This document shows, piece by piece, positions 1,705 through 62,401 of a stretch of DNA of 64,000 nt. The notes under the pieces are model-generated. The model worked only from the letters and a program-made list of their open reading frames with translations, was not told where the DNA came from and searched no databases. Position numbers and translations under genes: made by a program. The stretch's first letter is position 1; each line of letters starts with the position of its first letter. Origin of the DNA: a virus; the IMG/VR virus record IMGVR_UViG_3300050821_003315. The stretch is one strand, 5' to 3'.

Positions 1705-1757
1705 TAGAACTTCACCCTATCCGGAATAACTACAGCCCGAGATACGTTTTCAAGAGT

Positions 1758-2303: not shown

Positions 2304-5300
2304 TACTTAACACGGTCGGTATACCATCTTGGATTATAGCGTACGCCGATATTAGGTGCGCCATAAGTGGAGTAGGCAAGGATGAAATTGTCTCCCGGTG
2401 TAAGGAAGAACGGTCCTCCTGAAAGCACAGCTGAATCCAAGACACTGACGGAACGCTCCGGACCTTGCGGGGAACCAAGCACCGGGCTGATGTCCGTATC
2501 AAAGTCAGGCTCGTCAATGTAGTAGTTTGCGTACTTACCATAGCCGGGGTTAGCGTTGTTAACATTGACTAGAACGGTCTGGCCGGTAGTATCAAGGAAA
2601 AGTATATCCATGAATCGGTCGCCGCTTTCGCTGCTAATTACGCCGTAGGTGTAGAACGGCTCCTGGTTACTGGGGTCGTACTGCTTGATAGGCAGCGGAA
2701 GGTTACCCAGTGAGATTATGCCGTTCACAATATCAGTTGCAGGTGTCACTAGCCGAGTAACTTGCATACTGTAGCCAGGGCCGCCAGCGAATTCATACTG
2801 GGTAACTGTTACAGTAATTCGCCGCGTGATATTAGTTCCGACCGAAGTCGACCAGTTGTAATTAGCCAGGAATACTGCGTAAGTACCGTTGAATTCAGCA
2901 CTGCGCCACGGTATCACAGAGGACATCGTGTATTCCCGGCCGTCTGGTGGGTCTGTGACAGGAATTGGGCTAACAGGATTGAAGGTGTCCGGCGATTCGT
3001 AACCAGGCATGTGTAGAATTAGGTTATCAAATGCTTGCAGCGGCGGCGCGTAAGTTAGCCTTACGCGGCCATTGCCTCCGGAACCACCTAGGTTGATACC
3101 ACCCACACTACTCATTGCACCAGAGCCGCCACCACCAGGGGCACCACCTTGGACGCCCGCAGACGTTGCCTGAGGACCTGTAGCGCCCTGGCCACCGCCG
3201 CCATAGCCTGCGCCTCCGGTGTCAAAACCGGGGAAGCCGTGACCCGATGAGTTCGCTGAAGCGCCACCGCCACCGCCCCACCAAGGCATTGACAAAGATA
3301 CTGCTACTGCACCGATTGCAGCGCTAGCCGTAGTGCTTGCTGTTAGCGTAGAAGCGGCTGCTGTGCCAATATTGTACTGAGCGTTAATCTGCATGTTCAT
3401 TGTGCCTGCGCCACCAGAGTTGTTGATGGCTACGTTAAGGGCACCGGTAGCAGACAGCGTAACAGCGTTACTGCCTGTGGTAAAGCCCGCGTACATGGTG
3501 AAGTCTCCGGCCTTAGTAGGCGCACCGGACGTTAGTGTCACACTAGTAGTGCCGTTAGTGGAGGCCGTACCTCCAGTATCGCAGGCTGTACAGTTAGGAA
3601 TATAGAAAGACCTTACAACATGTGCCTGGTTAACTGTATCAGAGATAGTTATAGTGCCGGGGTTGTGTGTTACAGGGGCTGTAAGTACGGTCAGGAATGC
3701 AGTTGTAGCACCGTTGCTGCCAGTTACCTGCGCAGTGTAGGTGTTACCTCCTACATCCGCAGCGGTTACAGTGCTAGTTCCGGGGCGCTCTACGAATAGA
3801 ACTATTACACCCGTATTCAGCGTCGTAAAGGTAAACCGAGGCGTTATAGTTCCTGAAGTTCCAGTAAACGTGTCGCCCGCTGTAGTAGTAGGCAGGGATA
3901 CCGTAGCTGCACCTTGATTGGCAAGCACGAACGGCAGGGAAATACCGCCCCAAGTAGTGCTGGAGGCCCACGTCATACCGTGACTTCCACGACCACTGGT
4001 GTTCGGAGGAGTAATAGTGGATGTTACTGCGCCGAATAGCGCGCCACCAGAAATAGACCAGCCTAGGTTAGTGTAAAGCTCAGCGTCGTCAGAGCCTGTG
4101 CCTGCGTTACCTGTACTGGAGACGGTCGAACTGTTGCCCCAGAAGCCCCAGTTAAATTCAGTAGTAGTAGCATCAGTATTACCGAGTGTCAAGCTAGCGG
4201 CTGTTCCAGTTCCGGTATTAGTGACGATATTTGCCGTGTTAAGTTCAATAGCGTTATTCATATACCACCAGCTAGCCGCATACTGCTGAGCTGTAGCTGA
4301 CGATATTGTCAGAACTGTCGTACCGTTTGTCACCAAGGCAGCCAGGGGCGTCGTAAAGGCGTACATGTGTCCCGTGCCTATTGCTACGTCAGCCGCTGGC
4401 TGATAGACGTTGCCCGCACTATCCGATACTGTAAGGTCGCTTACAGCAGCCGCTGCGAGGACAACTACCGCACCAATACCGTTAACCGAAGTACCCGTGG
4501 CTGTTACTGTTCCGGTACCAGTACTGTAGCTAAAGGTCGCAGCGAGCTGTCCTGAACTGGAGCTGCCCTGAGTGGCTAGACCATTATTGCCTGTAGCGTT
4601 GGAGTACGGATAACCCTGACCACCGTTGAAGTGTGTGGAGTTAGAAGAACCGGTGCCTCCTGCCGCTCCCGCTGCTGTATTGTTAGCTACGGTACTACCG
4701 CCGTGGGCGGTTACTATAGTGCTCGTTAGGCCAGATGCCCCAAAAGTGGTGTTGCTGCCGTTAACAGGAGAGCCTAGGTTCACCTGGTAAGTAAGCTTTA
4801 CTTCCCCGGTACTTCCGATGCCACCCTTGTAGTTCTTGCCGTTTGAGCTGTAGCCACCGCCACCGCCACCGCCAGGTGTAACACCAGTTCCGGGGAAGCC
4901 GGGAACACTAGCGCCTACGCCGCCATTACCACCACCATTGGTGCCTGTAGCACCAGCGCCACCCGTAAGGTGAGCACCTTGTCCTGTGTTAGTTCCTCTA
5001 ACGCCCGCAGCGCCGTTAACGCCGACACTAGTAGTCCCTGCACCAGCGGCACCACCACCGCCCGCAGACCCCGGAGAAGCGCCTCCTACGCCGCCGTTGT
5101 GGTGCGTAGTGTTAGTCGAACCGTGACCGCCCTTACCGCCACTTGCGCCACCTGTAGCCGGGGATGCGCCTCCGCTAGCACGCACGGTAACAGCATCACC
5201 TATGAACCAGGAGGCAATACCGTCTCGCGCTACTGTAGCCGCCGTGTTTGTGCCTGTGTTAGGTACGCCCGCACGTCCTACCTGAAACTGGTAGGTGTTT

Positions 5301-35926: not shown

Positions 35927-35965
35927 GAAAAAGCCGGTAGCCGATAACCGGCTACCGGCTTTTTC
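35927..35965. terminator. Bidirectional intrinsic terminator after capsid gene
   Basis: gaaaaagccggtagccg ataac cggctaccggctttttc. Confidence 0.9.
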
Positions 35966-47810: not shown

Positions 47811-48318
47811 GCCAGAATCTGTGCACCACCCTGCCCACTACGGTGGGGAAGACAATCCGTACGAAGCTATTAAAGTAATTGAAGCCTGGGAACTAGGCTT
47901 CTGCCTAGGCAATACGGTTAAGTATATTTCGCGGGCAGGGAAGAAAGACCCCGAGGCTGTGCTGCAAGATTTGGAGAAGGCTTCCTGGTACCTCAAACGC
48001 GAAATTGAGAATCGCAAGAAAGAACCGGAGGCTGCTATAGGTGTCAAAGACGTGGGTGTTCGCGCGGTGTATGTTCAATATAAGCCCGGAGGCGGGGACC
48101 TTTTCACAGAGAAGCTAGCGTCAATTCAAATCGCAGGCAGTGACCTCGCGCAAACAGTAGCTGACTGTGCCGCCAAGCAAATGAACCTGTCAGGAAAATA
48201 CACGCTAGTTCTTTTGCATAAAGGACGCGCTACGCCTTATGCGCCACACTCAATCATGAAGTATTCATGGGGTTATCTTGATGACGGTGCGGAACTTAAG
48301 CTGGTGAAAGATGTCTGA
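47809..48318 (+). CDS. DUF3310 (SaV / T7 gp1.7 nucleotide-kinase-like) domain protein
   Basis: VHHPAHY...EAIKVIE...FCLGNTVKYISRAGKK...DLEKASWYL. Confidence 0.9.
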   Translation: MPESVHHPAHYGGEDNPYEAIKVIEAWELGFCLGNTVKYISRAGKKDPEAVLQDLEKASWYLKREIENRKKEPEAAIGVKDVGVRAVYVQYKPGGGDLFTEKLASIQIAGSDLAQTVADCAAKQMNLSGKYTLVLLHKGRATPYAPHSIMKYSWGYLDDGAELKLVKDV

Positions 48319-48907
48319 TTACGTAACTCACGATTCTGGCTCCATGAGCGAGTATGAAGATGGCATGCGCCGAGACGACACCACAGGCAAGCCGATGTTC
48401 TCGCTTATGTTCCCCAAGGGTGTTCCCTACGAGGAACAAATGATTACGCGCTTGGCAGCGCTGTATGCTCGCGGAGCAGAGAAATACGGAGCCAGGAACC
48501 ACGAGAAGTCTTCTACTGAAGAATCCCTGGCACATCACGAGGATGCATTCCTTCGTCACGTTTTTAAGTTCCTCACGGGGGTAGAAGATGGTGAGGACCA
48601 TGGCGCAGCAGTGCTGTGGAATGCAATTGCCATTGATTTGACGCGGCGTAATATCAAGGCAAAGCAAGAACAACACGCTGCATCCCAAGAGTTTCCGCTG
48701 TCAGATAGTGACACGGTAGAAGAAGCCTACAAAAAGATGGTGGACGCCTATGCAGCACAATCCGGTATAGCTACGGGACTCCTAGCCCCTTCGCTGCACG
48801 ATTGGTGGTTCAATCCTAGTACGGGTCACTGGGAGCGCGTAAGGCATAAGGCTTTCTGTGCATCAAAAAATAACTACAAGTCAGCAACGTGTGACTGTAA
48901 GGAGTGA
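48311..48907 (+). CDS. dATP/dGTP diphosphohydrolase-like (DUF5664) protein
   Basis: GMRRDDTTGKP...GAEKYGARN...AFLRH...EDHGAAVLWN. Confidence 0.8.
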   Translation: MSDYVTHDSGSMSEYEDGMRRDDTTGKPMFSLMFPKGVPYEEQMITRLAALYARGAEKYGARNHEKSSTEESLAHHEDAFLRHVFKFLTGVEDGEDHGAAVLWNAIAIDLTRRNIKAKQEQHAASQEFPLSDSDTVEEAYKKMVDAYAAQSGIATGLLAPSLHDWWFNPSTGHWERVRHKAFCASKNNYKSATCDCKE

Positions 48908-48910
48908 GTC

Positions 48911-49084
48911 ATGGCCATGAAGGACGAGTTCGAGAAGCTGCGTTACGCTGCTGACCTACTTAAGTCAGGTACACCTGTGGAGAAACAAGCAGCCCTAGAG
49001 CACGTTGAGCATATTTTGCGCACTAGTACAAGCACTACGTTGCTAACTGAAGCTAAGCGCATAAAGCGCCGGGAGGTTAAGTGA
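48911..49084 (+). CDS. 57-aa hypothetical protein (below cutoff)
   Basis: RBS AAGGAG; GTGA overlap with next gene. Confidence 0.55.
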   Translation: MAMKDEFEKLRYAADLLKSGTPVEKQAALEHVEHILRTSTSTTLLTEAKRIKRREVK

Positions 49085-49503
49085 ATCTAGGTTTCACAGG
49101 CACCCGAAATGGCATGACACGAGAGCAAATGCAAACCCTTCAGCGCATAGTCCAGGCTATAGCGCCAGCTAGGTTTCATCACGGTGCCTGTGTTGGCGCT
49201 GACGAACAAGCTGTAGTAGCCGTGAGGTATTTCTTGCCTCCGGAAGGTGTCGTAGCGTATCCACCTGATGACGACAAGCTAATTTCTCCTGAAGCTATCA
49301 GGTTGTCTGGTGTCGTACGCCCTCCGGAGCCATACCTGAAGCGGAATATGGCTATCGTCAGAGCGTCCTGGGTCCTGGTGGCCACACCGGAACAATCTGA
49401 AGAGCAGATGCGTTCTGGTACTTGGACGACAATTCGTTACGGGCGAGCAGCGAAGCACCCTGTGTTCATCATCCGACCCAACGGTCTCATAGAGGTTCAG
49501 TGA
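49081..49503 (+). CDS. SLOG (DprA/YspA-like) nucleotide-binding protein
   Basis: GFTGTR; HHGACVGAD; YLKRNMAIV; RSGTWTTIRY. Confidence 0.8.
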   Translation: MNLGFTGTRNGMTREQMQTLQRIVQAIAPARFHHGACVGADEQAVVAVRYFLPPEGVVAYPPDDDKLISPEAIRLSGVVRPPEPYLKRNMAIVRASWVLVATPEQSEEQMRSGTWTTIRYGRAAKHPVFIIRPNGLIEVQ

Positions 49504-49931
49504 AAATCTATCTAGCCAATAAGATGGCAGGGCTTCCGGAGTTTAACTTCCCGTGGTTCGACGCTGCGGCAACTTCGTTGCGCAGCATTCCTTTGGTTAC
49601 GGAAGTATTCAATCCGGCTGAAGAGGACCGTAAGTACGGTTTCGACGCGAAGGGTCTGGCAGGTAACGAGGATGAGGCTATAGCGCGCGGATTCGACCGT
49701 AGGCGCACTCTAGGACTGGACTGGGCCTGGATTGCGGCTAACAGTGATGGGTGCGCTGTAGGTCCCGATTGGCACCGCTCAATGGGTACTAAGTCTGAGA
49801 TAGCGTGCCATCAAGCGCTCGGACTTCCTGTGTGGCTATTCACGGAATTCATCCAAAACTGGGATACCTCTAACCTTTATGAGCTAGTTATTCCGGAGCT
49901 AATTACTCTGGGTAGTACACTGGTTACATGA
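49500..49931 (+). CDS. DUF4406 / nucleoside 2-deoxyribosyltransferase-like protein
   Basis: KIYLANKMAGLPEFNFPWF...VFNPAE...WHRSMGTKSE. Confidence 0.82.
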   Translation: MKIYLANKMAGLPEFNFPWFDAAATSLRSIPLVTEVFNPAEEDRKYGFDAKGLAGNEDEAIARGFDRRRTLGLDWAWIAANSDGCAVGPDWHRSMGTKSEIACHQALGLPVWLFTEFIQNWDTSNLYELVIPELITLGSTLVT

Positions 49932-50494
49932 TTATTCCCGGACTAGCTCTAGCAGCAAGCATGTTTAATCCGACAGGCTGGGAGGGTTACTCCTGGCCTG
50001 TCAGCACATCCAAGGTTTCAGCCCAGTTCACGATACCCACTGTGCGGCCCCCAAACGGCGCTGTAGCGTTCTGGGCGGGTCTTGGCAAGGGGAACCCAGG
50101 CATCCAGCAGGACGGCGTTGAGTGTGCCGAACTGAACGGTTTCGGCGGGTGCAGTCCGTGGTATGAGATGTGGCCAGCCGCAGCTCAGGCACTTCCGGGC
50201 ACCGTAAAGGCCGGCGACCACATGAAGTTCTCTGTAGCGCACACAGGTGACGATTACGTCCTGCAAGTGTTTGACCTTACACGGCACTGGACTGACACCG
50301 TACACACGGAATACGGTTCACACGAGAACAGCGGAGAAGCCATTGCTGAGGCGTTTGGGCAACCTCTACCGGGCTTCACGGCAGCATCCTTCACCCACAC
50401 ATCCGGGGTGCTCCAGCAGCTTTATAAGTTCCCGTTCTCCGGAACGTCCATAATCAAGGACTCGTCCACGTCGTTTACAGTTCACAAGCTTTAA
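49928..50494 (+). CDS. Secreted G1-family glutamic peptidase (eqolisin-like)
   Basis: Hydrophobic N-terminus; WEGY; VSAQFTIP; FWAGLG; IQQDG (catalytic Q); WYEMWP; SGEAIAE (catalytic E). Confidence 0.8.
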   Translation: MIIPGLALAASMFNPTGWEGYSWPVSTSKVSAQFTIPTVRPPNGAVAFWAGLGKGNPGIQQDGVECAELNGFGGCSPWYEMWPAAAQALPGTVKAGDHMKFSVAHTGDDYVLQVFDLTRHWTDTVHTEYGSHENSGEAIAEAFGQPLPGFTAASFTHTSGVLQQLYKFPFSGTSIIKDSSTSFTVHKL

Positions 50495-50495
50495 A

Positions 50496-50576
50496 TGGAC
50501 TAGCAGGGAATCGAACCCTGGTGCTACTAGCTTCCGACGTTGCGGCTTTATCTAGCAGACGAGACCAACCTAGCCC
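50496..50576 (-). ncRNA. 81-nt tmRNA tRNA-like-domain (TLD)-only RNA with G3.U70 alanine identity
   Basis: GGGCTAG / CTAGTCC-A acceptor; stemless D loop GTTGGTCTCGT; helix CTGCTAG/CTAGTAG; 3-nt connector CAC; T arm CAGGG TTCGATT CCCTG. Confidence 0.65.
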
Positions 50577-50611
50577 AAGTTCAAGTGTAACTCAATCAGT
50601 GATAAGCGAAG

Positions 50612-50680
50612 TGCCCTCGCCCGGAGTCGAACCGGGTAGCCAAGCTTAGGAGGCTCGGCGCTGCGTCCGTCAGCGGGGGC
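50612..50680 (-). tRNA. tRNA-Arg(CCT), compact 69-nt form
   Basis: CCGAGC CTCCTAA GCTTGG; T loop TTCGACT. Confidence 0.75.
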
Positions 50681-50684
50681 AAAG

Positions 50685-50757
50685 AGGGGCATGTGGGAGT
50701 CGAACCCACGACTTCCGGGTTGCAGCCGGAATCCCGAAAACCATCGAGACATGCCCC
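50685..50757 (-). tRNA. tRNA-Cys(GCA)
   Basis: TCCGG CTGCAAC CCGGA; U73. Confidence 0.88.
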
Positions 50758-50758
50758 A

Positions 50759-50830
50759 TGGTGCTTCTATCCGGAGTCGAACCGGACAACCAACCTTCGG
50801 AGGGTCGGCGGAAGTTCCCCTACTAGAAGC
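50759..50830 (-). tRNA. tRNA-Arg(CCG), compact form, CCA encoded
   Basis: CCGACC CTCCGAA GGTTGG. Confidence 0.75.
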
Positions 50831-50834
50831 ACAG

Positions 50835-50910
50835 TGACCCCACAGGGATTTGAACCCTGAAAACTCCTGCTTGAAAGGCAGGTGACTTTAACCAATTTGT
50901 CCATGGGGCC
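50835..50910 (-). tRNA. tRNA-Glu(TTC)
   Basis: CCTGC CTTTCAA GCAGG. Confidence 0.92.
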
Positions 50911-50941
50911 TTGCAACTACAGTGTACACGGTTGCGCGCAG

Positions 50942-51015
50942 TGACCCTACAGGGACTTGAACCCTGAAACTCCACCTTGAGAGGGTGGCGACTTTACCTA
51001 TTTGTCTATAGGGCC
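50942..51015 (-). tRNA. tRNA-Glu(CTC)
   Basis: CCACC CTCTCAA GGTGG. Confidence 0.93.
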
Positions 51016-51018
51016 ATA

Positions 51019-51330
51019 CTAAATTTCTGCACCTGATTCAGGATAAGGACCTACTAGGTCATTTGAATCAAGAACAGGGTCTAGGAACTTGGCTATGATA
51101 GCTAGCCTGCTCCAGGTTATGAGGAATTTTCGTCCCGCGTAGTCTCCGTCAGAAACATTAATGCTGAGTCCTGACGGAAGTATCGCGCAATCTTCTTTCT
51201 TGAAGGACATATTATCTAGTTCGCGGGAGTGAGTTACAATTCGGATGCGAGTTACATCCTCATCGTTCCACCACGGAGGGTACAAGTAGGCGTTAGCCAA
51301 ATCGTTTTCCCTAATTACTCCGCGAGACAT
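51019..51330 (-). CDS. Hypothetical protein inside tRNA array
   Basis: RBS GGAGG and TAAGCT -10 upstream. Confidence 0.6.
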   Translation of the reverse strand: MSRGVIRENDLANAYLYPPWWNDEDVTRIRIVTHSRELDNMSFKKEDCAILPSGLSINVSDGDYAGRKFLITWSRLAIIAKFLDPVLDSNDLVGPYPESGAEI

Positions 51331-51365
51331 AAGCTGCTACCTCCAAGGTTTCAGCTTATCACGTT

Positions 51366-51437
51366 TGGCGCGGCACCAGGGAGTCTAACCCTGCCTAGGA
51401 ATTTAGAAGATTCCCGCCCGAATACGTCGGCTGCCGC
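51366..51437 (-). tRNA. tRNA-Arg(TCT), compact form with TTAGACT T loop, CCA encoded
   Basis: GGGAAT CTTCTAA ATTCCT; D arm CCGA CGTAT TCGG. Confidence 0.7.
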
Positions 51438-51441
51438 GTAG

Positions 51442-51514
51442 TGCCTCCCCAGAGACTCGAACTCTGATACACGGGGTAAAAGCCCGTTGTCCTACGCTAT
51501 TGAACGAAGGAGGC
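51442..51514 (-). tRNA. tRNA-Lys(TTT)
   Basis: ACGGG CTTTTAC CCCGT. Confidence 0.9.
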
Positions 51515-51518
51515 AAAG

Positions 51519-51590
51519 TAGGGTCGCAGGGAATTGAACCCTGTTAGCATGTGTATAAGACATGCGTCCTAACCAGTGAACGACGACCCC
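51519..51590 (-). tRNA. tRNA-Ile(TAT)
   Basis: CATGT CTTATAC ACATG. Confidence 0.88.
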
Positions 51591-51591
51591 G

Positions 51592-51665
51592 TAGCTCACC
51601 TGGGAATTGAACCCAGCACGTCTATCTTATCAGGATAGTTCCACCCACCAGGTGGACTGTGAGCC
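51592..51665 (-). tRNA. tRNA-Ile(GAT)
   Basis: CTATC CTGATAA GATAG; extended D stem. Confidence 0.85.
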
Positions 51666-51669
51666 AAAG

Positions 51670-51750
51670 CGGAAGATTGAGGTGCCGACCCCCGCACCTT
51701 TCGGTGCATCCGGGTTCAAACCGGATTGCCAGGCCGCTGGCTAACCTTCC
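51670..51750 (-). tRNA. tRNA-Ser(TGA), atypical T arm
   Basis: TCCGG TTTGAAC CCGGA; variable arm GCACC GAAA GGTGC; T loop GTCGGCA. Confidence 0.7.
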
Positions 51751-51823
51751 ACGATGTCGCTTTTGTTCAGCCAAGCTGACGGCACGGCAGGGTGCCCTGA
51801 ACGCGATAGTGACCATCGCAGCG

Positions 51824-51907
51824 CGGAAGACAGAGTACTCGAAACCCAGTCCTGACGGACCCATCTGCTTTCGAAACAGCGCCCGCAGCCTTACGGGTTT
51901 ATCTTCC
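51824..51907 (-). tRNA. tRNA-Ser(CGA)
   Basis: CTGT TTCGAAA GCAG; long variable arm; G73. Confidence 0.8.
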
Positions 51908-51911
51908 AACG

Positions 51912-51996
51912 CGGAGAGCGGAGAACTCGAATCCCAGCGCCTTACGACGCCCAGCTCGTTTCCAGCGAGTGCCCAGCCCTGCCAGGTTCACTCTCC
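51912..51996 (-). tRNA. tRNA-Ser(GGA)
   Basis: CTCG CTGGAAA CGAG; long variable arm; G73. Confidence 0.83.
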
Positions 51997-52007
51997 ATGT
52001 TACTGCG

Positions 52008-52082
52008 TAGCCGCCGTGGGACTCGAACCCACAACCTCAGGCACCTAAAGCCTGCGCCTCTGCCAAATTGGGCTAGGCGGCC
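52008..52082 (-). tRNA. tRNA-Leu(TAG), short variable loop
   Basis: CAGGC TTTAGGT GCCTG. Confidence 0.9.
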
Positions 52083-52152
52083 ATACTGCCCCGTTAATCC
52101 TCATCATACAGGCCCTGTACACAGGCTGAGGTGCGTGGAGGCTTACGCAGTG

Positions 52153-52237
52153 CGGAAGATTGAGAACTCGAATCCCAGTGCATCTCTACACCGCACTCGT
52201 TAGCAGCGAGGCCCAGAACCTATCTGGTTAATCTTCC
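52153..52237 (-). tRNA. tRNA-Ser(GCT)
   Basis: CTCG CTGCTAA CGAG; long variable arm. Confidence 0.83.
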
Positions 52238-52246
52238 AAGGGGGTT

Positions 52247-52319
52247 TCTGTGACGGACTTAAAGGCTTTATCCTACAGCGTACTCGCTGCCCGGACGCCT
52301 AAACCGGGACTTCCACAGA
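52247..52319 (-). ncRNA. Circularly permuted tRNA-like RNA (T arm - closed acceptor - D arm)
   Basis: TCTGTG GAAGT CCCGG TTTAGGCGT CCGGG CAGCG AGTA CGCTG TA GGAT AAAGCCTTTAA GTCC GT CACAGA. Confidence 0.55.
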
Positions 52320-52322
52320 CCG

Positions 52323-52397
52323 TGCCGCTCCGGGGATTCGAACCCCGAACATCTGGCTTCTGAGGCCAGCGCCTCTACCTAATTGGACTAGAGCGGC
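52323..52397 (-). tRNA. tRNA-Leu(CAG), short variable loop
   Basis: CTGGC CTCAGAA GCCAG. Confidence 0.92.
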
Positions 52398-52416
52398 ATA
52401 AGCTCTTTCGAGCCAG

Positions 52417-52488
52417 AGTGGATGACGGGATTCGAACCCGCAACCATCACCTTGGCAAGGTGATACGCTACCGTTGCGCCACATCCAC
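52417..52488 (-). tRNA. tRNA-Gly(GCC)
   Basis: TCACC TTGCCAA GGTGA. Confidence 0.95.
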
Positions 52489-52506
52489 ATAGTGCTTTTC
52501 GCACAG

Positions 52507-52579
52507 AGCCTTGACCGAGATTCGAACTCGGGACCTCATCCGTACCAAGGATGTGCTCTTCCGCTGGAGCTATCAAGGC
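52507..52579 (-). tRNA. tRNA-Thr(GGT)
   Basis: CATCC TTGGTAC GGATG. Confidence 0.94.
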
Positions 52580-52583
52580 AAAG

Positions 52584-52654
52584 CTGCGGTACAAGGATTC
52601 GAACCTCGATAGACGGGACCAAAACCCGTCGTCCTGCCGTTAGACGATACCGCA
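52584..52654 (-). tRNA. tRNA-Gln(TTG)
   Basis: ACGGG TTTTGGT CCCGT; U1-A72. Confidence 0.93.
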
Positions 52655-52667
52655 TTAACGTACTACG

Positions 52668-52739
52668 AGCCTCGTGCAGGATTTGAACCCGCGACCTTCG
52701 CCTTACAAGGGCACTGCTCTTCCACTGAGCTAACGAGGC
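52668..52739 (-). tRNA. tRNA-Thr(TGT)
   Basis: GCC CTTGTAA GGC. Confidence 0.9.
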
Positions 52740-52751
52740 ATTGTTACTGCG

Positions 52752-52836
52752 TGCGCGAAGAGGGACTTGAACCCTCACGACTCTTCCGAGTCACTGGACT
52801 CTCATTCCAGCGTGTCTGCCATTTCACCATCCGCGC
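52752..52836 (-). tRNA. tRNA-Leu(GAG), long variable arm
   Basis: CTGGA ATGAGAG TCCAG. Confidence 0.92.
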
Positions 52837-52855
52837 ATAGTTCCTTTCGGAACAG

Positions 52856-52923
52856 AGCCTCATCGGAGAATTGAACTCCGCGACATCCCCGTACGAAGGG
52901 GCTGTGTACCCAGTACATGAGGC
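52856..52923 (-). tRNA. tRNA-Thr(CGT), compact 68-nt form
   Basis: CCCC TTCGTAC GGGG; D arm GTAC TGG GTAC directly after the acceptor strand. Confidence 0.7.
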
Positions 52924-52927
52924 AAAG

Positions 52928-52998
52928 CTCCGGGGCAGAGATTCGAACTCCAATTAATAGGTTCAGAGCCTATCGTCCTGCCGTTAGACGACCCCGGA
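52928..52998 (-). tRNA. tRNA-Gln(CTG)
   Basis: ATAGG CTCTGAA CCTAT. Confidence 0.93.
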
Positions 52999-53015
52999 AT
53001 AGCGCTTTCGCGCAG

Positions 53016-53093
53016 TGCCGAATGAGGGAATCGAACCCCCGGTGCCAAAGGCAACAGTTTTACAGACTGCTTCCACTCCACGTGGTATCCGGC
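53016..53093 (-). tRNA. tRNA-Tyr(GTA), shortened D arm
   Basis: GCAGT CTGTAAA ACTGT; variable arm GCC TTT GGC. Confidence 0.82.
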
Positions 53094-53094
53094 A

Positions 53095-53170
53095 TGGTGT
53101 GACCGCTGGGAATTGAACCCAGATGGCTAGTTTCACAAACTAGCGTGTTAACCATTACACCACGGTCACC
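53095..53170 (-). tRNA. tRNA-His(GTG), CCA encoded
   Basis: CTAGT TTGTGAA ACTAG. Confidence 0.92.
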
Positions 53171-53171
53171 G

Positions 53172-53243
53172 TAGGCGATGAGGGATTCGAACCCCCGACT
53201 TTCTCTTTGTAAGAGAGATGCTCTTCCACTGAACTAATCGCCC
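53172..53243 (-). tRNA. tRNA-Val(TAC)
   Basis: TCTCT CTTACAA AGAGA. Confidence 0.95.
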
Positions 53244-53262
53244 ATAGCGCATTTCTGCGCAG

Positions 53263-53336
53263 TGCACTAGGAGGGATTCGAACCCCCAAGTCTCTTGATT
53301 CGTAGTCAAGTGCATTATCCGTTTTGCTACTAGTGC
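53263..53336 (-). tRNA. tRNA-Arg(ACG), canonical
   Basis: CTTGA CTACGAA TCAAG. Confidence 0.93.
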
Positions 53337-53337
53337 G

Positions 53338-53412
53338 CGACCCTAACGGGATTTGAACCCGTAACCTCCGCCGTGACAGGGCGGTGCTCTGACCAAGTTG
53401 AGCTATAGAGCC
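53338..53412 (-). tRNA. tRNA-Asp(GTC)
   Basis: CCGCC CTGTCAC GGCGG. Confidence 0.96.
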
Positions 53413-53431
53413 ATATCCTCTTGCGAGGAAG

Positions 53432-53503
53432 CTCCTGTGATAGGATTCGAACCTATAACCAAGCGGTTAACAGCCGCCTACTCTGCCGTTGAGCTACACA
53501 GGA
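53432..53503 (-). tRNA. tRNA-Asn(GTT)
   Basis: GGCGG CTGTTAA CCGCT. Confidence 0.95.
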
Positions 53504-53540
53504 TTAGCGCTTTCGCGCGGGTACACCTTAAGTATACCAG

Positions 53541-53611
53541 TACCTAGGGAGGGAATCGAACCCTCGTGTCTGGCTTATGAGACCAGTGTTCTTCCATTGA
53601 ACTACCCAGGC
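53541..53611 (-). tRNA. tRNA-Met(CAT), elongator (Ile2 not excluded)
   Basis: CTGGT CTCATAA GCCAG. Confidence 0.88.
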
Positions 53612-53614
53612 AAG

Positions 53615-53691
53615 TGGGGGCGCGTCCCGGATTTGAACCGGGGTTCTCCAGATTATGGGCCTGGCGAGATACCGAACTTCTCCAACGCGCA
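53615..53691 (-). tRNA. Initiator-like tRNA(CAT), atypical
   Basis: U1xC72 mismatch; fMet-like D arm GGAGAAGTTCGGTATCTCG; CCAGG CCCATAA TCTGG. Confidence 0.75.
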
Positions 53692-53692
53692 G

Positions 53693-53767
53693 TGCCCGAC
53701 CGGGGACTCGAACCCCGAACATCCGGTGTTTGAAACCGGCGACTCTACCTAATTGGCCTAGTCGGGC
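53693..53767 (-). tRNA. tRNA-Leu(CAA), short variable loop
   Basis: CCGGT TTCAAAC ACCGG. Confidence 0.92.
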
Positions 53768-53774
53768 AAACCTT

Positions 53775-53975
53775 CTAAAAGTGTCCCACAATCCTCCAGA
53801 TAGTCTGACTGTGGTAACGCTCGCAACGCAAGAACCAGTAACTGTGATACACAGCCCTTGTACCGAGTCGCGAACAGGAAGTGTTCGGAGCCGGGTGAGA
53901 CTGCGATGCTAGGGCTGAACCGCTGCCCAGTGCTATCGCTGCAATCGTGAACAAGGCTACAAGTAGTTTCTTCAT
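53775..53975 (-). CDS. Small secreted protein inside tRNA array
   Basis: MKKLLVALFTIAAIALGSGSALA signal peptide; two Cys; TAAACT -10 box 6 nt upstream (leaderless). Confidence 0.75.
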   Translation of the reverse strand: MKKLLVALFTIAAIALGSGSALASQSHPAPNTSCSRLGTRAVYHSYWFLRCERYHSQTIWRIVGHF

Positions 53976-53991
53976 GATTACAGTTTAGCAG

Positions 53992-54063
53992 TACCCCGCC
54001 AGGGATTCGAACCCTGACAACGCTGGGTAAGAGCCAGCTGCACTACCGTTATGCTAACGGGGC
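53992..54063 (-). tRNA. tRNA-Lys(CTT)
   Basis: GCTGG CTCTTAC CCAGC. Confidence 0.94.
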
Positions 54064-54067
54064 AAAG

Positions 54068-54139
54068 AGCGAGTGACGGGATTCGAACCCGCAGTGCCAC
54101 TTTGGAAGAGTGGGAGTTTAACCATTAACCAACACTCGC
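54068..54139 (-). tRNA. tRNA-Gly(TCC)
   Basis: CCACT CTTCCAA AGTGG. Confidence 0.9.
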
Positions 54140-54156
54140 ATAGCGCTTTCGCGCAG

Positions 54157-54228
54157 TGGCTCCCAGAAGACTTGAACTTCTTTATCTTGGGCTTCAACCA
54201 AGTGCTCTACCATATGAGCTAGAGAGCC
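54157..54228 (-). tRNA. tRNA-Phe(GAA)
   Basis: CTTGG TTGAAGC CCAAG. Confidence 0.9.
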
Positions 54229-54247
54229 ATAACCCTTTATAGGGCAG

Positions 54248-54318
54248 TCGGGATGCGGAGAATCGAACTCCGTCTGCATGCTCCCAAAGCATGCGCGCTA
54301 CCAGTACGCTACACCCCG
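54248..54318 (-). tRNA. tRNA-Pro(TGG)
   Basis: CATGC TTTGGGA GCATG. Confidence 0.93.
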
Positions 54319-54380
54319 TGGAGCCCGGTTTATTTTGGTTGCTCCGGAAATCACGGCAACTCGTTCATCATTGAACTACG

Positions 54381-54455
54381 TCAGAGTGGTGGGATTCGAA
54401 CCCACGACCTCCTGCATCCCGAGCAGGCACGCTAACCAAGCTGCGCTACACCCTG
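54381..54455 (-). tRNA. tRNA-Pro(GGG)
   Basis: CCTGC TCGGGAT GCAGG (C33). Confidence 0.9.
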
Positions 54456-54484
54456 ATACAGCCACCGCTTGCAATCAGTGGCCT

Positions 54485-54577
54485 AAGTTACATTCGCCGC
54501 TCTGCCATTAAGCTACAGTGCCGTGGGAGCTACCCTTGCACTGACCGGAGTCGAACCGGCACCTGTTTCTGTAACTT
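54485..54577 (-). ncRNA. YrlA-type bacterial Y RNA (permuted tRNA mimic)
   Basis: AAGTTACA...T arm GCCGG TTCGACT CCGGT - CAGTGC/GCACTG closed acceptor - TA - D arm GCTT AATGGCA GAGC - GGCGAATG motif - TGTAACTT closing stem. Confidence 0.75.
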
Positions 54578-54579
54578 TG

Positions 54580-54654
54580 TCTGGACGGGAGGATTTGAAC
54601 CTCCGACCTCCGCAATCCGAATGCGGCACGCTGACCAAGCTGCGCTACGCCCAG
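54580..54654 (-). tRNA. tRNA-Pro(CGG)
   Basis: CCGCA TTCGGAT TGCGG. Confidence 0.93.
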
Positions 54655-54740
54655 TTAAAGCACGGTGTGCTATGCTCCCTACACCATCCTGCCCCTGTTG
54701 GGACGGGTGCCGATTCCAACGGCGACCTCCGTGAACTAAC
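54655..54740 (-). ncRNA. Circularly permuted tRNA-like RNA
   Basis: CACGG AGGTC GCCG TTGGAAT CGGC A CCCGTCCC AACA GGGGCAGG A TG GTGT AGGGAGCATA GCAC A CCGTG. Confidence 0.65.
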
Positions 54741-54836
54741 GCCGGGTATGCTCCCTCCATACAACACCGGGCAACTCCACGCACTCTCATGCGCTTCACC
54801 GTCACCCAGGCAGGATTCGAACCTGCGCCTCCCAGC
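54741..54836 (-). ncRNA. Circularly permuted tRNA-like RNA with extended acceptor hairpin
   Basis: GCTGG GAGGC GCAGG TTCGAAT CCTGC CTGGGTGAC...GCGCAT GAGA GTGCGT...GTTGCCCGG TGTT GTATG GAGGGAG CATAC CCGGC. Confidence 0.65.
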
Positions 54837-54839
54837 AAG

Positions 54840-54914
54840 TGGACCATGTCGGATTCGAACCGACAACCTTCACCGTGCAAAGGTGTTGCTCTACCAGATT
54901 GGAGCTAATGGCCC
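54840..54914 (-). tRNA. tRNA-Ala(TGC)
   Basis: CACC TTTGCAC GGTG; G3.U70. Confidence 0.94.
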
Positions 54915-54995
54915 ATGGTGACCTGAACAAGGAAATGCGTCTAGCTATTCCCGGAAGCCGGGATTCTAGGCACACGCCCCTATTCAGGTCATCTT

Positions 54996-55047
54996 GCTTA
55001 TCACTGTTGAGTTATCAAATAACAGGACACTCGCCGTAGCGAAGTCC
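54996..55047 (-). promoter_or_regulatory. rrn-type boxB hairpin + boxA antitermination element
   Basis: GGAC TTCGC TACG GCGA GT GTCC hairpin then TGTTATTTGATAACTCAACAGTG, resembling the actinobacterial rrn leader boxA. Confidence 0.65.
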
Positions 55048-55050
55048 GTG

Positions 55051-55121
55051 CAGGCCACCAGAGAGTCGAACTCTGTCTAAGAGGGTTGGAGCCTCGTGTG
55101 CTTCCGGTACACCAGTGACCT
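55051..55121 (-). tRNA. tRNA-Trp(CCA)
   Basis: GAGG CTCCAAC CCTC; G73. Confidence 0.9.
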
Positions 55122-55162
55122 ATACTTTTTTCTTATTTAGTTGTTTTGCGCTTGTACCCTCT

Positions 55163-55202
55163 AACAACGAAGACCGCCTCCGGTTTATTCCGGGGCGGTC
55201 TC
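55163..55202 (-). terminator. Intrinsic terminator / attenuator hairpin upstream of tRNA array
   Basis: GAGACCGCCCCGG AATAAA CCGGAGGCGGTC TTCGTTGTT. Confidence 0.7.
55166..55191 (-). promoter_or_regulatory. SigR/SigH-type ECF promoter (GGAAT-N18-GTT)
   Basis: GGAAT at 55191..55187 and GTT at 55168..55166, with exactly 18 nt between. Confidence 0.5.
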
Positions 55203-55224
55203 TCGATTTTCCGAGATTGTGCCC

Positions 55225-55332
55225 CTAACCAGGGTTACCCAGCTTCGGCATGCTGAAGGCAGCGCGGATGACCCGCTGGCAGTGCCAGTAGGCTCGTCCG
55301 GTGCCGCTCAGTGCGGAGGTCTTCGTCATCAT
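55225..55332 (-). CDS. 35-aa leaderless upstream ORF (putative leader peptide)
   Basis: MMTKTSALSGTGRAYWHCQRVIRAAFSMPKLGNPG; extended -10 TGG-TAAGGT ends 6 nt before the ATG. Confidence 0.6.
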   Translation of the reverse strand: MMTKTSALSGTGRAYWHCQRVIRAAFSMPKLGNPG

Positions 55333-55387
55333 GCTTCTACCTTACCACGCTCTCCGAGTGCTCAAACCATCTTGAGCAAAAATCTTG

Positions 55388-55579
55388 TCAGAAGTTGTAC
55401 GGGTCGTTCAGGTACTGCTGGATGACAGTGTAGATGCCGGGGTCGTCGCCCTTAATCTGGGCGGGTTGCCCGTTCATGTCTACCATCACGTCGTAAGTAC
55501 CCGGACCCTTGTTGTCCAGCTTAACTATCTGTGCTTTACGAAGCACGTCTTTAAGTGCTTCTAGTGCTTCCGTCCTCAT
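55388..55579 (-). CDS. Hypothetical protein
   Basis: ORF in operon. Confidence 0.6.
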   Translation of the reverse strand: MRTEALEALKDVLRKAQIVKLDNKGPGTYDVMVDMNGQPAQIKGDDPGIYTVIQQYLNDPYNF

Positions 55580-55581
55580 GA

Positions 55582-55842
55582 TTAGTACTGCGGGAGTTGC
55601 GCTACAGGCATCGCTATGCCCGGAAGCAGCGGCATTGTCGAGACGGGAGCGTACAGCGTCCCTAGCTGGTCGCGCAGCGCTGCCAGGAGTCCGGGGTTAC
55701 CCCGCCAGTTGAAAGGCATACCGTCTTGAGCCAGCGGCTGTGCTGTGGCCCACAGGGCCTCGTCCAGCGTCATCCACAGGTCGCGAGCGTCCTGGTCGGA
55801 CAGAGTGAGACTTACTGTGGACTTGCGCGTGATTTCTACCAT
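55582..55842 (-). CDS. Hypothetical protein
   Basis: ORF in operon. Confidence 0.6.
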   Translation of the reverse strand: MVEITRKSTVSLTLSDQDARDLWMTLDEALWATAQPLAQDGMPFNWRGNPGLLAALRDQLGTLYAPVSTMPLLPGIAMPVAQLPQY

Positions 55843-55847
55843 GTCCC

Positions 55848-56417
55848 CTACCTATCCCACGAGTCGGTCTTGTCGTAGTCCAACGTCCACATGGCATGAG
55901 CTATTCCCGCGCCCTTGATGGCCCTCATGCAGCCACCACACGGCTCACCACTCACCCGCTGGCGATTGAATGCCCGACCGTCACGAAGTTCGTATGTAAT
56001 AGCCGTAATATAAATCGAGGCACCTTCGCACTTATCACGGTCGGCGTACAGGAGTGCATTTAGCTCAGCATGTACGGCGATACACGACCCTGCGCCAGTG
56101 TCATAGCTGGAACCGGGTTCCACCGAAGACTTGCACGGCCATCCGATAGTATTGCACGTGCCACAGCCTTTTGAATCAAAGTCATTATGGTTGCTGTACA
56201 AGACCTTGTAGTGCTGACCGCGCGGGCAGTCTCCCTCAAGGCAAGAACCTTCACCCGAGGGCGCTCCGTTGTAGCCCGTCGCGACAATGCGGTTATCCTT
56301 CGCGATGACAGCCCCGACGTTGCGCCGCGTGCAGTCCGCTCGCTCGCTGACAGTCTCAGCCAGGTCGAGAAAGTACTCAGGCCAGTCAGGCCGCTTCCAG
56401 AATTTCCACGTCGTCAT
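55848..56417 (-). CDS. dCMP deaminase
   Basis: RADCTRRNVGAVI...ATGYNG; VHAELNAL; PCGGC. Confidence 0.93.
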   Translation of the reverse strand: MTTWKFWKRPDWPEYFLDLAETVSERADCTRRNVGAVIAKDNRIVATGYNGAPSGEGSCLEGDCPRGQHYKVLYSNHNDFDSKGCGTCNTIGWPCKSSVEPGSSYDTGAGSCIAVHAELNALLYADRDKCEGASIYITAITYELRDGRAFNRQRVSGEPCGGCMRAIKGAGIAHAMWTLDYDKTDSWDR

Positions 56418-56468
56418 TACCCCTCCAACACCCAGTGCGTTTCGCTTATTCCGGCTAGCCTTTTATAC

Positions 56469-57239
56469 ATGATTCTGTATAAGATATTCACGATAGTAAT
56501 CGGGCTTATAGCCGGACTGTTCATGCTCCCTGCGCCTGCGGCTATAGCTTCTACTGCGCCGAACCAGAAGTGCCCGCCGAACGGGACTAACTGGTCATCT
56601 AGCGAGCAGTGGACTACTCGGTCGTTCACGGGAACTGATGGCAGCACGTATTCCCTTAACGCTAATCAATGGGGAACAGATAGTTCCGACAAGTTCACTA
56701 TGTTCACTACGACCACTAAGGGAGAGTGGGGCTTTTGCGCTAACTCTAACCCTAATGGTGGCTGGCCTTACGCTAACGAGGAAAAAGACTACAACGGTAA
56801 GTCTGTAAGCTCTATTAAGACGCTTGTCAGCACTTACGGTTTTAGCGTTCCCAGTAACTACGGTCAGTGGAATGTAGCCTACGACATCGGCATCAACGGC
56901 GAAGTAGCTAACGGTGCTCACGAGGTAATGTTCTGGGTGTACACACATGGGCAGAGCACAGGCAGTACGCCAGAAGGAACCATCACCGTCGATGGTCAGA
57001 AGTGGGACCTGTCTGGTTGCACAACTTGCAGGCGTGTTGACCTCGTACTACCGAAGAACAGTACGTCAGGCACTCTTCACATAGCGGATTTGCTTCATGC
57101 GCTTCAAAAGGATTCTCGCACACGAGGCACAGTTCCACCGAGCGCACAGCTTTACGGCGTACAATTCGGGTCGGAAGTGCACGGTACGCAAGGTCACACA
57201 CTAACATTTCTCTACCAGAAGTACACGCTTACTCCCTAA
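56469..57239 (+). CDS. Secreted GH12 glycoside hydrolase (endo-beta-glucanase-like)
   Basis: Signal peptide from ATG 56469; NANQWG; WNVAYDI; HEVMFW (nucleophile E); VQFGSEV (acid/base E). Confidence 0.82.
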   Translation: MILYKIFTIVIGLIAGLFMLPAPAAIASTAPNQKCPPNGTNWSSSEQWTTRSFTGTDGSTYSLNANQWGTDSSDKFTMFTTTTKGEWGFCANSNPNGGWPYANEEKDYNGKSVSSIKTLVSTYGFSVPSNYGQWNVAYDIGINGEVANGAHEVMFWVYTHGQSTGSTPEGTITVDGQKWDLSGCTTCRRVDLVLPKNSTSGTLHIADLLHALQKDSRTRGTVPPSAQLYGVQFGSEVHGTQGHTLTFLYQKYTLTP

Positions 57240-57493
57240 ACGCGCTGCCAGTTTGTGATTAGCGTCCCACAAGGGATGTGATTCACGGCCTTATCCTGAA
57301 AGTACGGCAGGCATTCATAGCATACGAAACGGGGCCGTGTTGACCTATTACACGTATCACAATTCACGATAACGCGAGCTACGGAGGGGTTACCGCAAAC
57401 GGTAACCCCTTCCTCGTCGTATAGCTCACAAGGCGGCGCACCCTCTAGGTCAATACCCTCAAGAAAATGCACTAGGGAAGTAGCGTCAGCCAT
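57236..57493 (-). CDS. Cys-rich hypothetical protein
   Basis: Multiple CxxC motifs. Confidence 0.6.
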   Translation of the reverse strand: MADATSLVHFLEGIDLEGAPPCELYDEEGVTVCGNPSVARVIVNCDTCNRSTRPRFVCYECLPYFQDKAVNHIPCGTLITNWQRV

Positions 57494-57496
57494 CTT

Positions 57497-57757
57497 TTAG
57501 TCCTTAAGCCACGTGTTGTTACTACGGCGGATACTAGTAAACATGCTAGCTGGTACCTTGTGTCCCGCGTAGCAGTGCAACTTAAGGTGCTGGTCGATGA
57601 ACTTGCAGTAGTGGAACACCGGGTCGGGTTCTACCTTCTTGCCGTTCTCATCTTCAGGAACGAACTTGCATCCGACGCACTGTAGCACCTTGGAGGTGTT
57701 CTGAACGACTTCCAACAAGTAAACATCGGACTTTTCCCCGCACAGAACGTAGGTCAT
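57497..57757 (-). CDS. Hypothetical protein (CxxC, HxxxH)
   Basis: SDVY...CVGC...HLKLH...GHKVP. Confidence 0.6.
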   Translation of the reverse strand: MTYVLCGEKSDVYLLEVVQNTSKVLQCVGCKFVPEDENGKKVEPDPVFHYCKFIDQHLKLHCYAGHKVPASMFTSIRRSNNTWLKD

Positions 57758-58011
57758 GAACTCACCTGGTGCTTCGTAACGCGAACGCTATCACCTTCGC
57801 AACTGTAAGTGGCAAAGAAAATCCAGCCATCATCCAGCATGCTCTGAGTAAGCTCATAAACTTCGATATTTTCGGGGCAGTGGCGACTACCTGTTTTAAG
57901 CTCTCTATCGGCATACTCGATAGCGTCTATTGCGTCAGCGAACACTTTAATATCCGGGTCGGCGTGTCGGTCTTGAACTAGCACCACGTAAACGTCAATC
58001 ATTCTTCCCAC
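57754..58011 (-). CDS. Hypothetical protein
   Basis: ORF downstream of rtcB. Confidence 0.6.
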   Translation of the reverse strand: MGRMIDVYVVLVQDRHADPDIKVFADAIDAIEYADRELKTGSRHCPENIEVYELTQSMLDDGWIFFATYSCEGDSVRVTKHQVSS

Positions 58012-61812: not shown

Positions 61813-62121
61813 TTACTTATCGCTCTTGCTCTGCTTAGCAGCCTTTAGCCGCTCCCATTCGGCCACGGCCTCGCCTGACGCCTGGACAACTTCCGGGTGC
61901 ACGTGGCCGTGGCCTATTTTTTCGCCCGGATGCTGCCAGCGCTTAACGCTGTTGATTGCGGTAGCAATCGCCTGAGACTCATCCATGCCGTTACGCTGGA
62001 GTGCAGCGGCAATGTTCTCAACGTAGTCGGGTAGGTGCTCGACGGGGTGAGTCCGCTTCCACAACGGAGCCGGACCTAGTTCGGTATGCGTACTTGCTAG
62101 ACGCTCAGTTTCTTCACTCAT
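61813..62121 (-). CDS. Hypothetical protein of actinophage type
   Basis: LPDYVENIA.AL...ESQAIATAINSVKRW...AVAEWERLK. Confidence 0.7.
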   Translation of the reverse strand: MSEETERLASTHTELGPAPLWKRTHPVEHLPDYVENIAAALQRNGMDESQAIATAINSVKRWQHPGEKIGHGHVHPEVVQASGEAVAEWERLKAAKQSKSDK

Positions 62122-62125
62122 GCTT

Positions 62126-62401
62126 CTACGCTAGCAAGTTTTCGGGCGGTATGGTGCCCTTGGCCAGCGACCACATACTAAGCCTAACGTGATACCTAAG
62201 CCAGAAAGCGTCTCCGTTATGCGTAGCGAAAGACACGAATCTACTCTCGTACGAATCCGCGTTGTGTATCTCGATTGACCTCAGGATAAGGTGCTGAGCT
62301 ACTTCCCACTCCAGTCCTAGCTTGCCAAGAGCGTGAAAAGCCTGGTTCTGTGTTAGGTAGGCTGCGCCACCTAGTAGTTTGTCGAAGCTCATTCCTACCA
62401 T
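62126..62401 (-). CDS. Hypothetical protein
   Basis: ORF in operon. Confidence 0.5.
   Translation of the reverse strand: MVGMSFDKLLGGAAYLTQNQAFHALGKLGLEWEVAQHLILRSIEIHNADSYESRFVSFATHNGDAFWLRYHVRLSMWSLAKGTIPPENLLA

Follow-up and report, generated by a model that had tools for sequence, protein, structure and literature searches.

The window, by which we mean the whole 64-kb stretch of DNA analysed, corresponds, in reverse complement, to bases 1-63933 of an IMG/VR virus record of 163.5 kb (IMGVR_UViG_3300050821_003315), derived from an uncultured soil phage. Its G+C content is about 53%, and its terminase is closest to those of Rhodococcus, Arthrobacter and Mycobacterium phages (30-34% identity). 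Reading along the minus strand, the gene of the RtcB RNA ligase and several small genes are followed by a dCMP deaminase, two short ORFs, a leader region and, directly beyond it, an array of 35 tRNA genes. The leader, all of whose features are on the minus strand, consists of a conserved non-coding block, a small ORF, a small hairpin (H2) and a strong GC hairpin (T) that overlaps a predicted promoter motif of the SigH/SigR type (P2); a second such motif (P3) lies within the head of the array (Table 1). A short ORF with competing hairpins had been noted upstream of the tRNA array in a sequence-only reading of the same DNA; the arrangement is real and conserved in four lineages.

Table 1 Features of the leader and its surroundings, in window coordinates and in minus-strand order.
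Feature	Position	Strand	Remarks
rtcB (RtcB RNA ligase)	59205-58021	minus	followed by several small genes
dCMP deaminase	56417-55848	minus	downstream of rtcB
86-aa ORF, then 63-aa ORF	63-aa ORF, 55579-55388	minus	between dCMP deaminase and leader
Conserved non-coding block before small ORF	55333-55382	minus	homology with relatives starts at T run; gene neighbours differ
-10-like box TGGTAAGGT	55347-55339 (TGG 55347-55345; TAAGGT 55344-55339)	minus	ends 6 nt before ATG at 55332
Small ORF	55225-55332	minus	ATG 55332; 35 codons, MMTKTSALSGTGRAYWHCQRVIRAAFSMPKLGNPG, then stop TAG 55227-55225
Imperfect in-ORF hairpin, apex CUGGC-ACU-GCCAG	55265-55300	minus	consensus fold of four lineages
GGGGC overlapping UAG stop	55221-55225	minus	shares 55225 with the stop; proposed antiterminator 5' strand; invariant in four lineages
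H2, TCTCG-GAAAAT-CGAGA	55201-55216	minus	stem kept with different sequences
Strong GC hairpin T	55170-55202 (core 55200-55172)	minus	~-24 kcal/mol, then UUCGUUGUU
GCCCC, shared switch segment	55196-55192	minus	in 5' arm of T
P2, SigH/SigR-type motif	55166-55191	minus	GGAATA 55191-55186, N17, GTT 55168-55166
Conserved ACAAGCGCAAAAC	55143-55155	minus	between P2 and tRNA-Trp; nearly invariant in four lineages
tRNA-Trp(CCA)	55050-55121	minus	first of the 35-tRNA array; sole tRNA between P2 and P3
P3, second SigH-type motif	54926-54951	minus	directly before tRNA-Ala
35 tRNA genes	tRNA-Trp 55121-55050 to 50611	minus	directly beyond leader region
GGAATA-N17-GTT sites of the window	1723, 46070, 47774, 54951, 55191, 55907, 56452, 59282		

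The four lineages with the leader are the window, L040, L043 and L046. L040 stands for one IMG/VR contig (L002/L005/L040), to which two metagenome contigs found with the dCMP deaminase (L006/L007) are identical here; its leader is 97% identical to that of the window, while the neighbouring coding DNA is 82-89% identical and lacks one gene. L043/L044 and L046 are more divergent lineages from Logan assemblies, reached via a protein search with the dCMP deaminase. Neighbouring proteins are 68-93% identical among the four lineages and the leader arrangement is kept, with a common order in all of them: rtcB, then the deaminase, the leader, tRNA-Trp, tRNA-Ala, three tRNA-Pro, and onward. A mosaic boundary is visible at window 55382-55392, where homology of the tRNA module with L040, L043 and L046 sets in abruptly at the T run ahead of the leader. 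Of the four lineages, the window and L046 have the 63-aa upstream gene, and L040 and L043 do not.

Cultured phages, searched by megablast and blastn with the leader and by tblastn with the peptide, gave nothing meaningful. Exact and degenerate leader DNA patterns recovered only one relative contig among the IMG/VR contigs, and the DNA pattern of the leader core has no match in species-representative genomes. Searches of the IMG/VR contigs with the 63-aa ORF, RtcB and terminase proteins returned nothing beyond that one known relative; the 86-aa and 63-aa neighbour proteins led to no other relatives, and five further deaminase contigs (L047, L048, L049/L050, L051 and L052) are without the leader. 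Within the databases searched, the leader element is confined to a small clade. One of the five, L047 (Logan SRR21778115), belongs to a distant phage and has its tRNA array immediately upstream of the dCMP deaminase, not downstream (583-3699); the order is Val, Arg, Val, His, Tyr, Arg, Cys, Arg-CCT, the head of the array being off the contig.

The small ORF of the window is composed as described before: 35 codons, of which 27 are distinct, and 18 amino acids, with neither Asp nor Glu. The L046 peptide does have a Glu. ORF lengths are 35, 35, 35 and 34 codons in the window, L040, L043 and L046, respectively, and the ATG, the frame and the UAG stop are kept throughout. The peptide has a core, ALSGTG(R/L)AYWHCQ(R/Q)VI, and a tail, MPKxGNPG, that runs up to the stop. 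The only indel in the ORF is an in-frame 3-nt deletion in L046; six codons vary synonymously only, among them Ser-27, with an AGC/TCC switch, and the final three variable ones, which lie in the GGN AAC CCN GGN ahead of the stop and change at the wobble position alone. Because of the wobble-only changes in the tail, the switch between serine codon families and the in-frame deletion, the ORF is probably translated.

The sequence-only reading expected relatives to keep the position of the ORF and not its sequence, and saw in its codon diversity the mark of a possible general tRNA-starvation attenuator. Neither point is supported. With 23 of the 35 residues invariant in the four lineages and only synonymous variation in the tail, the peptide sequence itself appears to matter, which points to a peptide-specific role. 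As for the diversity, random 35-codon ORFs drawn from the phage codon usage reach at least 18 amino acids with P = 0.105 and at least 27 codons with P = 0.29, so that it lies within random expectation. We found no codon run of a regulatory kind in the ORF; its one Trp codon is invariant. The peptide has no family match in Pfam, NCBIfam, PHROGs or the ESM Atlas, nor in a profile search of 1.8 billion proteins, apart from a single profile match, P0125, a 196-aa protein made of ~23-aa repeats (...GAGTARAVWCCSIVFRRAF...). We rejected it as a homologue: P0125 is probably a spurious frame that runs through a tandem repeat, and its likeness to the peptide is likely accidental.

The ORF core is conserved beyond its amino acids. 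Twelve degenerate codons within the stretch 8-22 do not differ between any of the four lineages, and the core shows no synonymous change at all. For rtcB and the deaminase, 43-57% of conserved-residue codons are identical among the window, L043 and L046; the chance of twelve invariant codons is ~6e-7, a conservative estimate. Such a core points to an added constraint at the RNA or DNA level. Two candidates for it were discarded: a second gene overlapping the ORF in antisense or in an alternative frame, since L046 interrupts the antisense frame, and pairing of the leader with another site of the phage genome, where matches are at chance level only. The consensus fold of the four lineages predicts an imperfect hairpin inside the ORF; two substitutions fit its pairing and two break it, and its structural support is weak.

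Upstream of the ORF, the -10 box reported 6 nt before the ATG is present as TGGTAAGGT, and all four lineages have a TANNNT at this distance of 6 nt from the ATG, despite a 2-nt indel in L046. The box could be a sigma-A-type promoter of a leaderless mRNA. Equally, the same bases (A[A/G]GGT, ~7 nt ahead of the ATG) could act as a weak ribosome-binding site on read-through transcripts; SigH-type promoters lie upstream and would also transcribe through the region of the small ORF. The 12-nt string GTAGAAGCATGA around the ORF start recurs at window 62121-62132 (minus strand), where it marks the start of a 102-aa ORF, 12 nt past the stop of the previous gene. The recurrence raises the possibility that GTAGAAGC belongs to a translation-initiation context and not to a promoter. 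An inverted repeat upstream of the -10-like box, TGCTCAA-N6-TTGAGCA, was considered as an operator and rejected, one arm being lost in L043 and the other altered in L046.

At the 3' end of the ORF, the stop codon overlaps a GGGGC, as had been observed. UAG-GGGC and CCGCCCCGG, which would each need to take part in two alternative pairings, are invariant in the four lineages, and the bases just 3' of GGGGC vary. The hairpin that follows, H2, was also correctly recognized: its pairing is kept in the four lineages, with the stems UCUCG/CGAGA in the window, CCUCGA/UCGAGG in L043 and, in a shifted register, CUCAG/CUGAG in L046.

The pairing proposed between GGGGC and GCCCC, in the 5' arm of T, is recovered in predicted folds of RNA made before the 3' arm of T, where it encloses H2; these folds are of naked RNA up to the T loop, for the four lineages. 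The GGGGC:GCCCC register is that of the window, L040 and L046, and in L043 the G-rich region pairs with the 5' arm of T differently. The antiterminator bases are invariant and hence show no covariation, and their 5 bp stand against ~-24 kcal/mol for T: with the 3' arm of T added, T wins. As T dominates once complete, any switch would have to be kinetic, as in classical attenuators. The hairpin CCCT-GGTT-AGGG, thought to sequester GGGGC, is indeed found at 55234-55223, but its pairing amounts to only 3-4 bp and weakens in L046; it follows from the conserved NPG codons. Compared with shuffled sequences, the fold of the 186-nt RNA has a z-score of -3.5 in the window and -5.0 in L040. A long-range pairing of the ORF 5' end with the 3' arm of T was rejected: it is partly kept in L043 and has three pairs broken in L046.

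Hairpin T ranks in the top 0.1% of 44-nt windows of the genome for stability. All 11 of its pairs are formed in each of the four lineages, and basal pairs change on both sides, from A-U/G-C/A-U in the window to G-C/A-U/G-C in L043; the covarying part of T lies outside the overlap segment. Because pairing is kept through compensatory changes, the comparison identifies both H2 and T as real RNA-level features. T begins 27-30 nt past the stop and can still fold, because this distance exceeds the reach of a terminating ribosome (~12-15 nt, an estimate rather than a computed value).

As to the description of T as a terminator, the hairpin is stable and conserved, but its U tract is poor compared with the clear terminators of this phage. 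Where the latter have five or six U right after the stem, T is followed by UUCGUUGUU (UCGUUGUAA in L046), read in the window as TTCGTTGTT. Part of the tail is constrained by the -10 element of P2, and the promoter that overlaps T can account for some of the hairpin's invariance. Judged by its predicted fold and its tail, T is a candidate for a leaky intrinsic terminator or an RNA 3' stabiliser; its termination could be weak or conditional, or absent altogether. As a strong-terminator reference, the window contains a perfect bidirectional intrinsic terminator at ~35932-35960, with a 13-bp stem flanked by runs rich in U on either strand. When 48000-58000 was scanned permissively against Rfam, this stretch gave nothing but tRNAs and noise, and no T-box, riboswitch or leader-RNA match.

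P2 is interlocked with T. Its GGAATA occupies the top of the stem and the loop, its GTT lies in the 'U tract', and the repeat of T spans the -35 to -10 interval; the start predicted for it (~55160-55156) falls downstream of T. In the four lineages the GGAATA is kept, with spacings of 17, 17, 17 and 16. P3 keeps GGAATAGCT and GTT in the four lineages around a 17-nt spacer that varies: conserved elements with a variable spacer are the signature of a true promoter. The published actinobacterial SigH/SigR/SigE-type consensus is (G/T)GGAATA, 16-19 nt, (C/T)GTTGAA (PMC3489674). Like these ECF promoters, the phage has GGAATA-N17-(C/T)GTT(G) in T and before tRNA-Ala, enriched genome-wide; it differs from them in that the motif is predicted to drive phage genes in general, and a start codon frequently follows exactly 9 nt after the GTT.

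The window has 8 exact GGAATA-N17-GTT sites, against 0.29 expected, and genome-wide there are 27 sites at N17 and 4-5 at a spacing one base shorter or longer. The 27 sites point toward genes; at least 11 have an ATG or GTG exactly 9 nt after the GTT, a placement that suggests widespread leaderless mRNAs. In the region of the window studied here, these promoters punctuate the genome every 0.3-3 kb. The idea that they are habitually placed in hairpins was dropped, since P2 is the only one of the 27 copies to lie in a strong hairpin. So was that of a sigma factor of the phage's own reading the motif, as neither the Sigma70_r2 nor the Sigma70_r4_2 domain was detected in the phage.

Transcripts from P2 and P3 would begin past T, and the hairpin can therefore act only on transcription that arrives from upstream. 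To say that ribosome stalling would switch on the array is therefore an overstatement: predicted promoters in T and before tRNA-Ala allow the array to be transcribed independently of the hairpin. As in the window, tRNA-Trp comes first in the arrays of L040, L043 and L046. Right after it, at window 55040-55015 (minus strand), we observe a hairpin (GGACUUCGC...GCGAGUGUCC) and then UGUUAUUUG; in L043 and L046 this place is taken by another sequence able to form a hairpin. Combined with P2 and P3, the hairpin of the window gives tRNA-Trp the look of a small unit of its own.

In its layout the leader resembles the trpL, hisL and pheL attenuators: a short ORF is followed by a hairpin and a U-rich tract, a segment at the end of the ORF is predicted to pair with the 5' arm of the candidate terminator, and the 1:2 / 2:3 / 3:4 topology can be drawn. 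Unlike them, it has no regulatory codon run and its peptide sequence is conserved; it precedes phage tRNAs and not biosynthetic genes, its hairpin overlaps an independent promoter, and its U tract is weak. A likeness to the arrest leaders TnaC, SecM and ApdA may presumably be drawn as well, in the conserved short peptide with an invariant Trp and a C-terminal Pro/Gly motif by the stop, and in its position upstream of what we take to be a transcription decision point. It differs from these in that the leader peptide has no known arrest motif.

Leaderless short ORFs are known as attenuators in mycobacteria, with polycysteine sORFs as an example (bioRxiv 10.1101/834739), and uORF attenuation controls whiB7/wblC in actinobacteria (PMC13236596). 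Shared with these are the actinobacterial-type setting, a candidate leaderless short ORF placed first on the transcript, and ribosome stalling proposed to change the downstream RNA structure. Elements of the whiB7 type respond to general translation stress, and in this they resemble the model discussed below. In contrast, there is no sequence relationship and no cysteine tract here, and the polycysteine sORFs free the next gene's ribosome-binding site (bioRxiv 10.1101/834739), which is inapplicable to tRNA genes. On terminators near genes, one study describes repression of a terminator within a few bp of the gene end and an efficiency that rises with distance from the gene (PMC4824070). Ribosome-mediated attenuation and leaderless sORF regulators are already known; for a candidate of this kind before a phage tRNA array, our literature search found no description.

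We favour a translation-sensitive leaky terminator at the head of the tRNA-array module, a plausible but unproven reading to which we assign a probability of about 0.4. It is ranked first because it is the sole reading that makes use of every conserved piece, namely the invariant stop-overlapping G-rich segment, H2, T and the fixed 27-30-nt distance between the stop and T; the case for attenuation draws on just four lineages. The module would comprise, in order, an upstream control block, the 34-35-codon ORF, H2, and T with a weak U tract overlapping P2, the predicted promoter of tRNA-Trp. Pairing of the G-rich segment at the stop with the 5' arm of T, which H2 would draw close to each other, would block T. 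A ribosome keeping pace with RNA polymerase would, on reaching the stop, cover this segment; T would then form and end transcription arriving from upstream, be it from the putative sigma-A promoter at the ORF or from the SigH-type promoters of the rtcB-to-dCMP-deaminase genes. If translation of the ORF were slow, stalled or absent, the antiterminator would form first, with read-through into tRNA-Trp and the array.

Such a device would sense the general status of translation and not single tRNAs. The conserved peptide suggests a further, peptide-specific step, for instance slow termination at the GNPG-stop or stalling at the one Trp codon, which is invariant. P2 and P3, which start past T, would provide a second input to the array beyond the reach of attenuation: because the array has predicted promoters of its own, attenuation would be at most one input. 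A more definite version, where stalling at the Trp codon, at the GNPG-stop or anywhere under host tRNA depletion or defence cleavage causes read-through into the array, and the phage thereby boosts its supply of tRNAs just as translation in the host fails, is in our judgement unlikely.

Nearly as likely as the leaky terminator, and equally tentative, is ordinary punctuation: the small gene would end the upstream operon and T would be a plain terminator or 3' stabiliser, overlapped by chance by an array promoter, with no sensing by ribosomes. As a stabiliser, T would protect the upstream mRNA after an RNase P/RNase E cut at tRNA-Trp. Compact terminator-promoter junctions are common in phages, and the dense spacing of SigH-type promoters in the region fits this explanation; so does a peptide conserved as a protein, as expected of a working micropeptide, and so does the thermodynamic dominance of complete T over every alternative fold. 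Punctuation explains neither why the structure of H2 is conserved, nor why GGGGC at the stop does not vary, nor why the ORF core lacks synonymous change, and the poor U tract speaks against a simple efficient terminator.

Three other explanations are less likely than these two. Transcription from the -10-like box could end at T and release a structured RNA of ~170 nt, a dual-function small RNA that encodes the peptide and acts in trans, for which liberated attenuator RNAs such as rnTrpL offer a precedent (PMC6614838). The strong predicted fold and the nucleotide invariance of the ORF core beyond coding needs agree with this, but no complementary target above chance occurs in the phage genome, the pairing of the 5' end with the 3' arm of T that would close the fold is broken in L046, and there is no Rfam match; we regard it as quite improbable. 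Slimmer still is the chance that the inverted repeat of T is a DNA palindrome for a dimeric regulator of P2 and not an RNA hairpin. G-U pairs at the base of the stem and beside the H2 loop fit RNA and not a palindrome, H2 and the stop-proximal GGGGC fall outside any operator, and none of the 26 other promoter copies has such a repeat. In favour of the palindrome, the extent of the repeat coincides exactly with the -35 to -10 interval of P2, and symmetric changes in half-sites would also resemble covariation. Finally, the ORF could be an untranslated chance frame in a structured non-coding leader: its variable columns are spread near-evenly over codon positions (8/10/11), and it has no homologue in protein databases. 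Against it stand the frame, start and stop kept in four lineages, an indel that preserves the frame, and three successive wobble-only codons before the stop together with the AGC/TCC serine switch, and we give it the lowest chance of all.

The roles commonly proposed for large tRNA arrays of phages are support of late translation and replacement of host tRNAs lost to defence nucleases or host shut-off; to our knowledge, little has been described of how their expression is controlled. If the leaky terminator is indeed translation-sensitive, it would be the first case known to us of ribosome-sensed control of phage tRNA supply, and attenuation, so far a matter of amino-acid and antibiotic sensing, would then reach tRNA genes too. 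Should the ordinary explanation hold, there would still be a conserved micropeptide and a clear terminator-like hairpin fused to an ECF-type promoter, as well as a usable promoter map for an uncultured actinophage clade. We also observe that the 35-tRNA array sits next to the gene of the RtcB RNA ligase.
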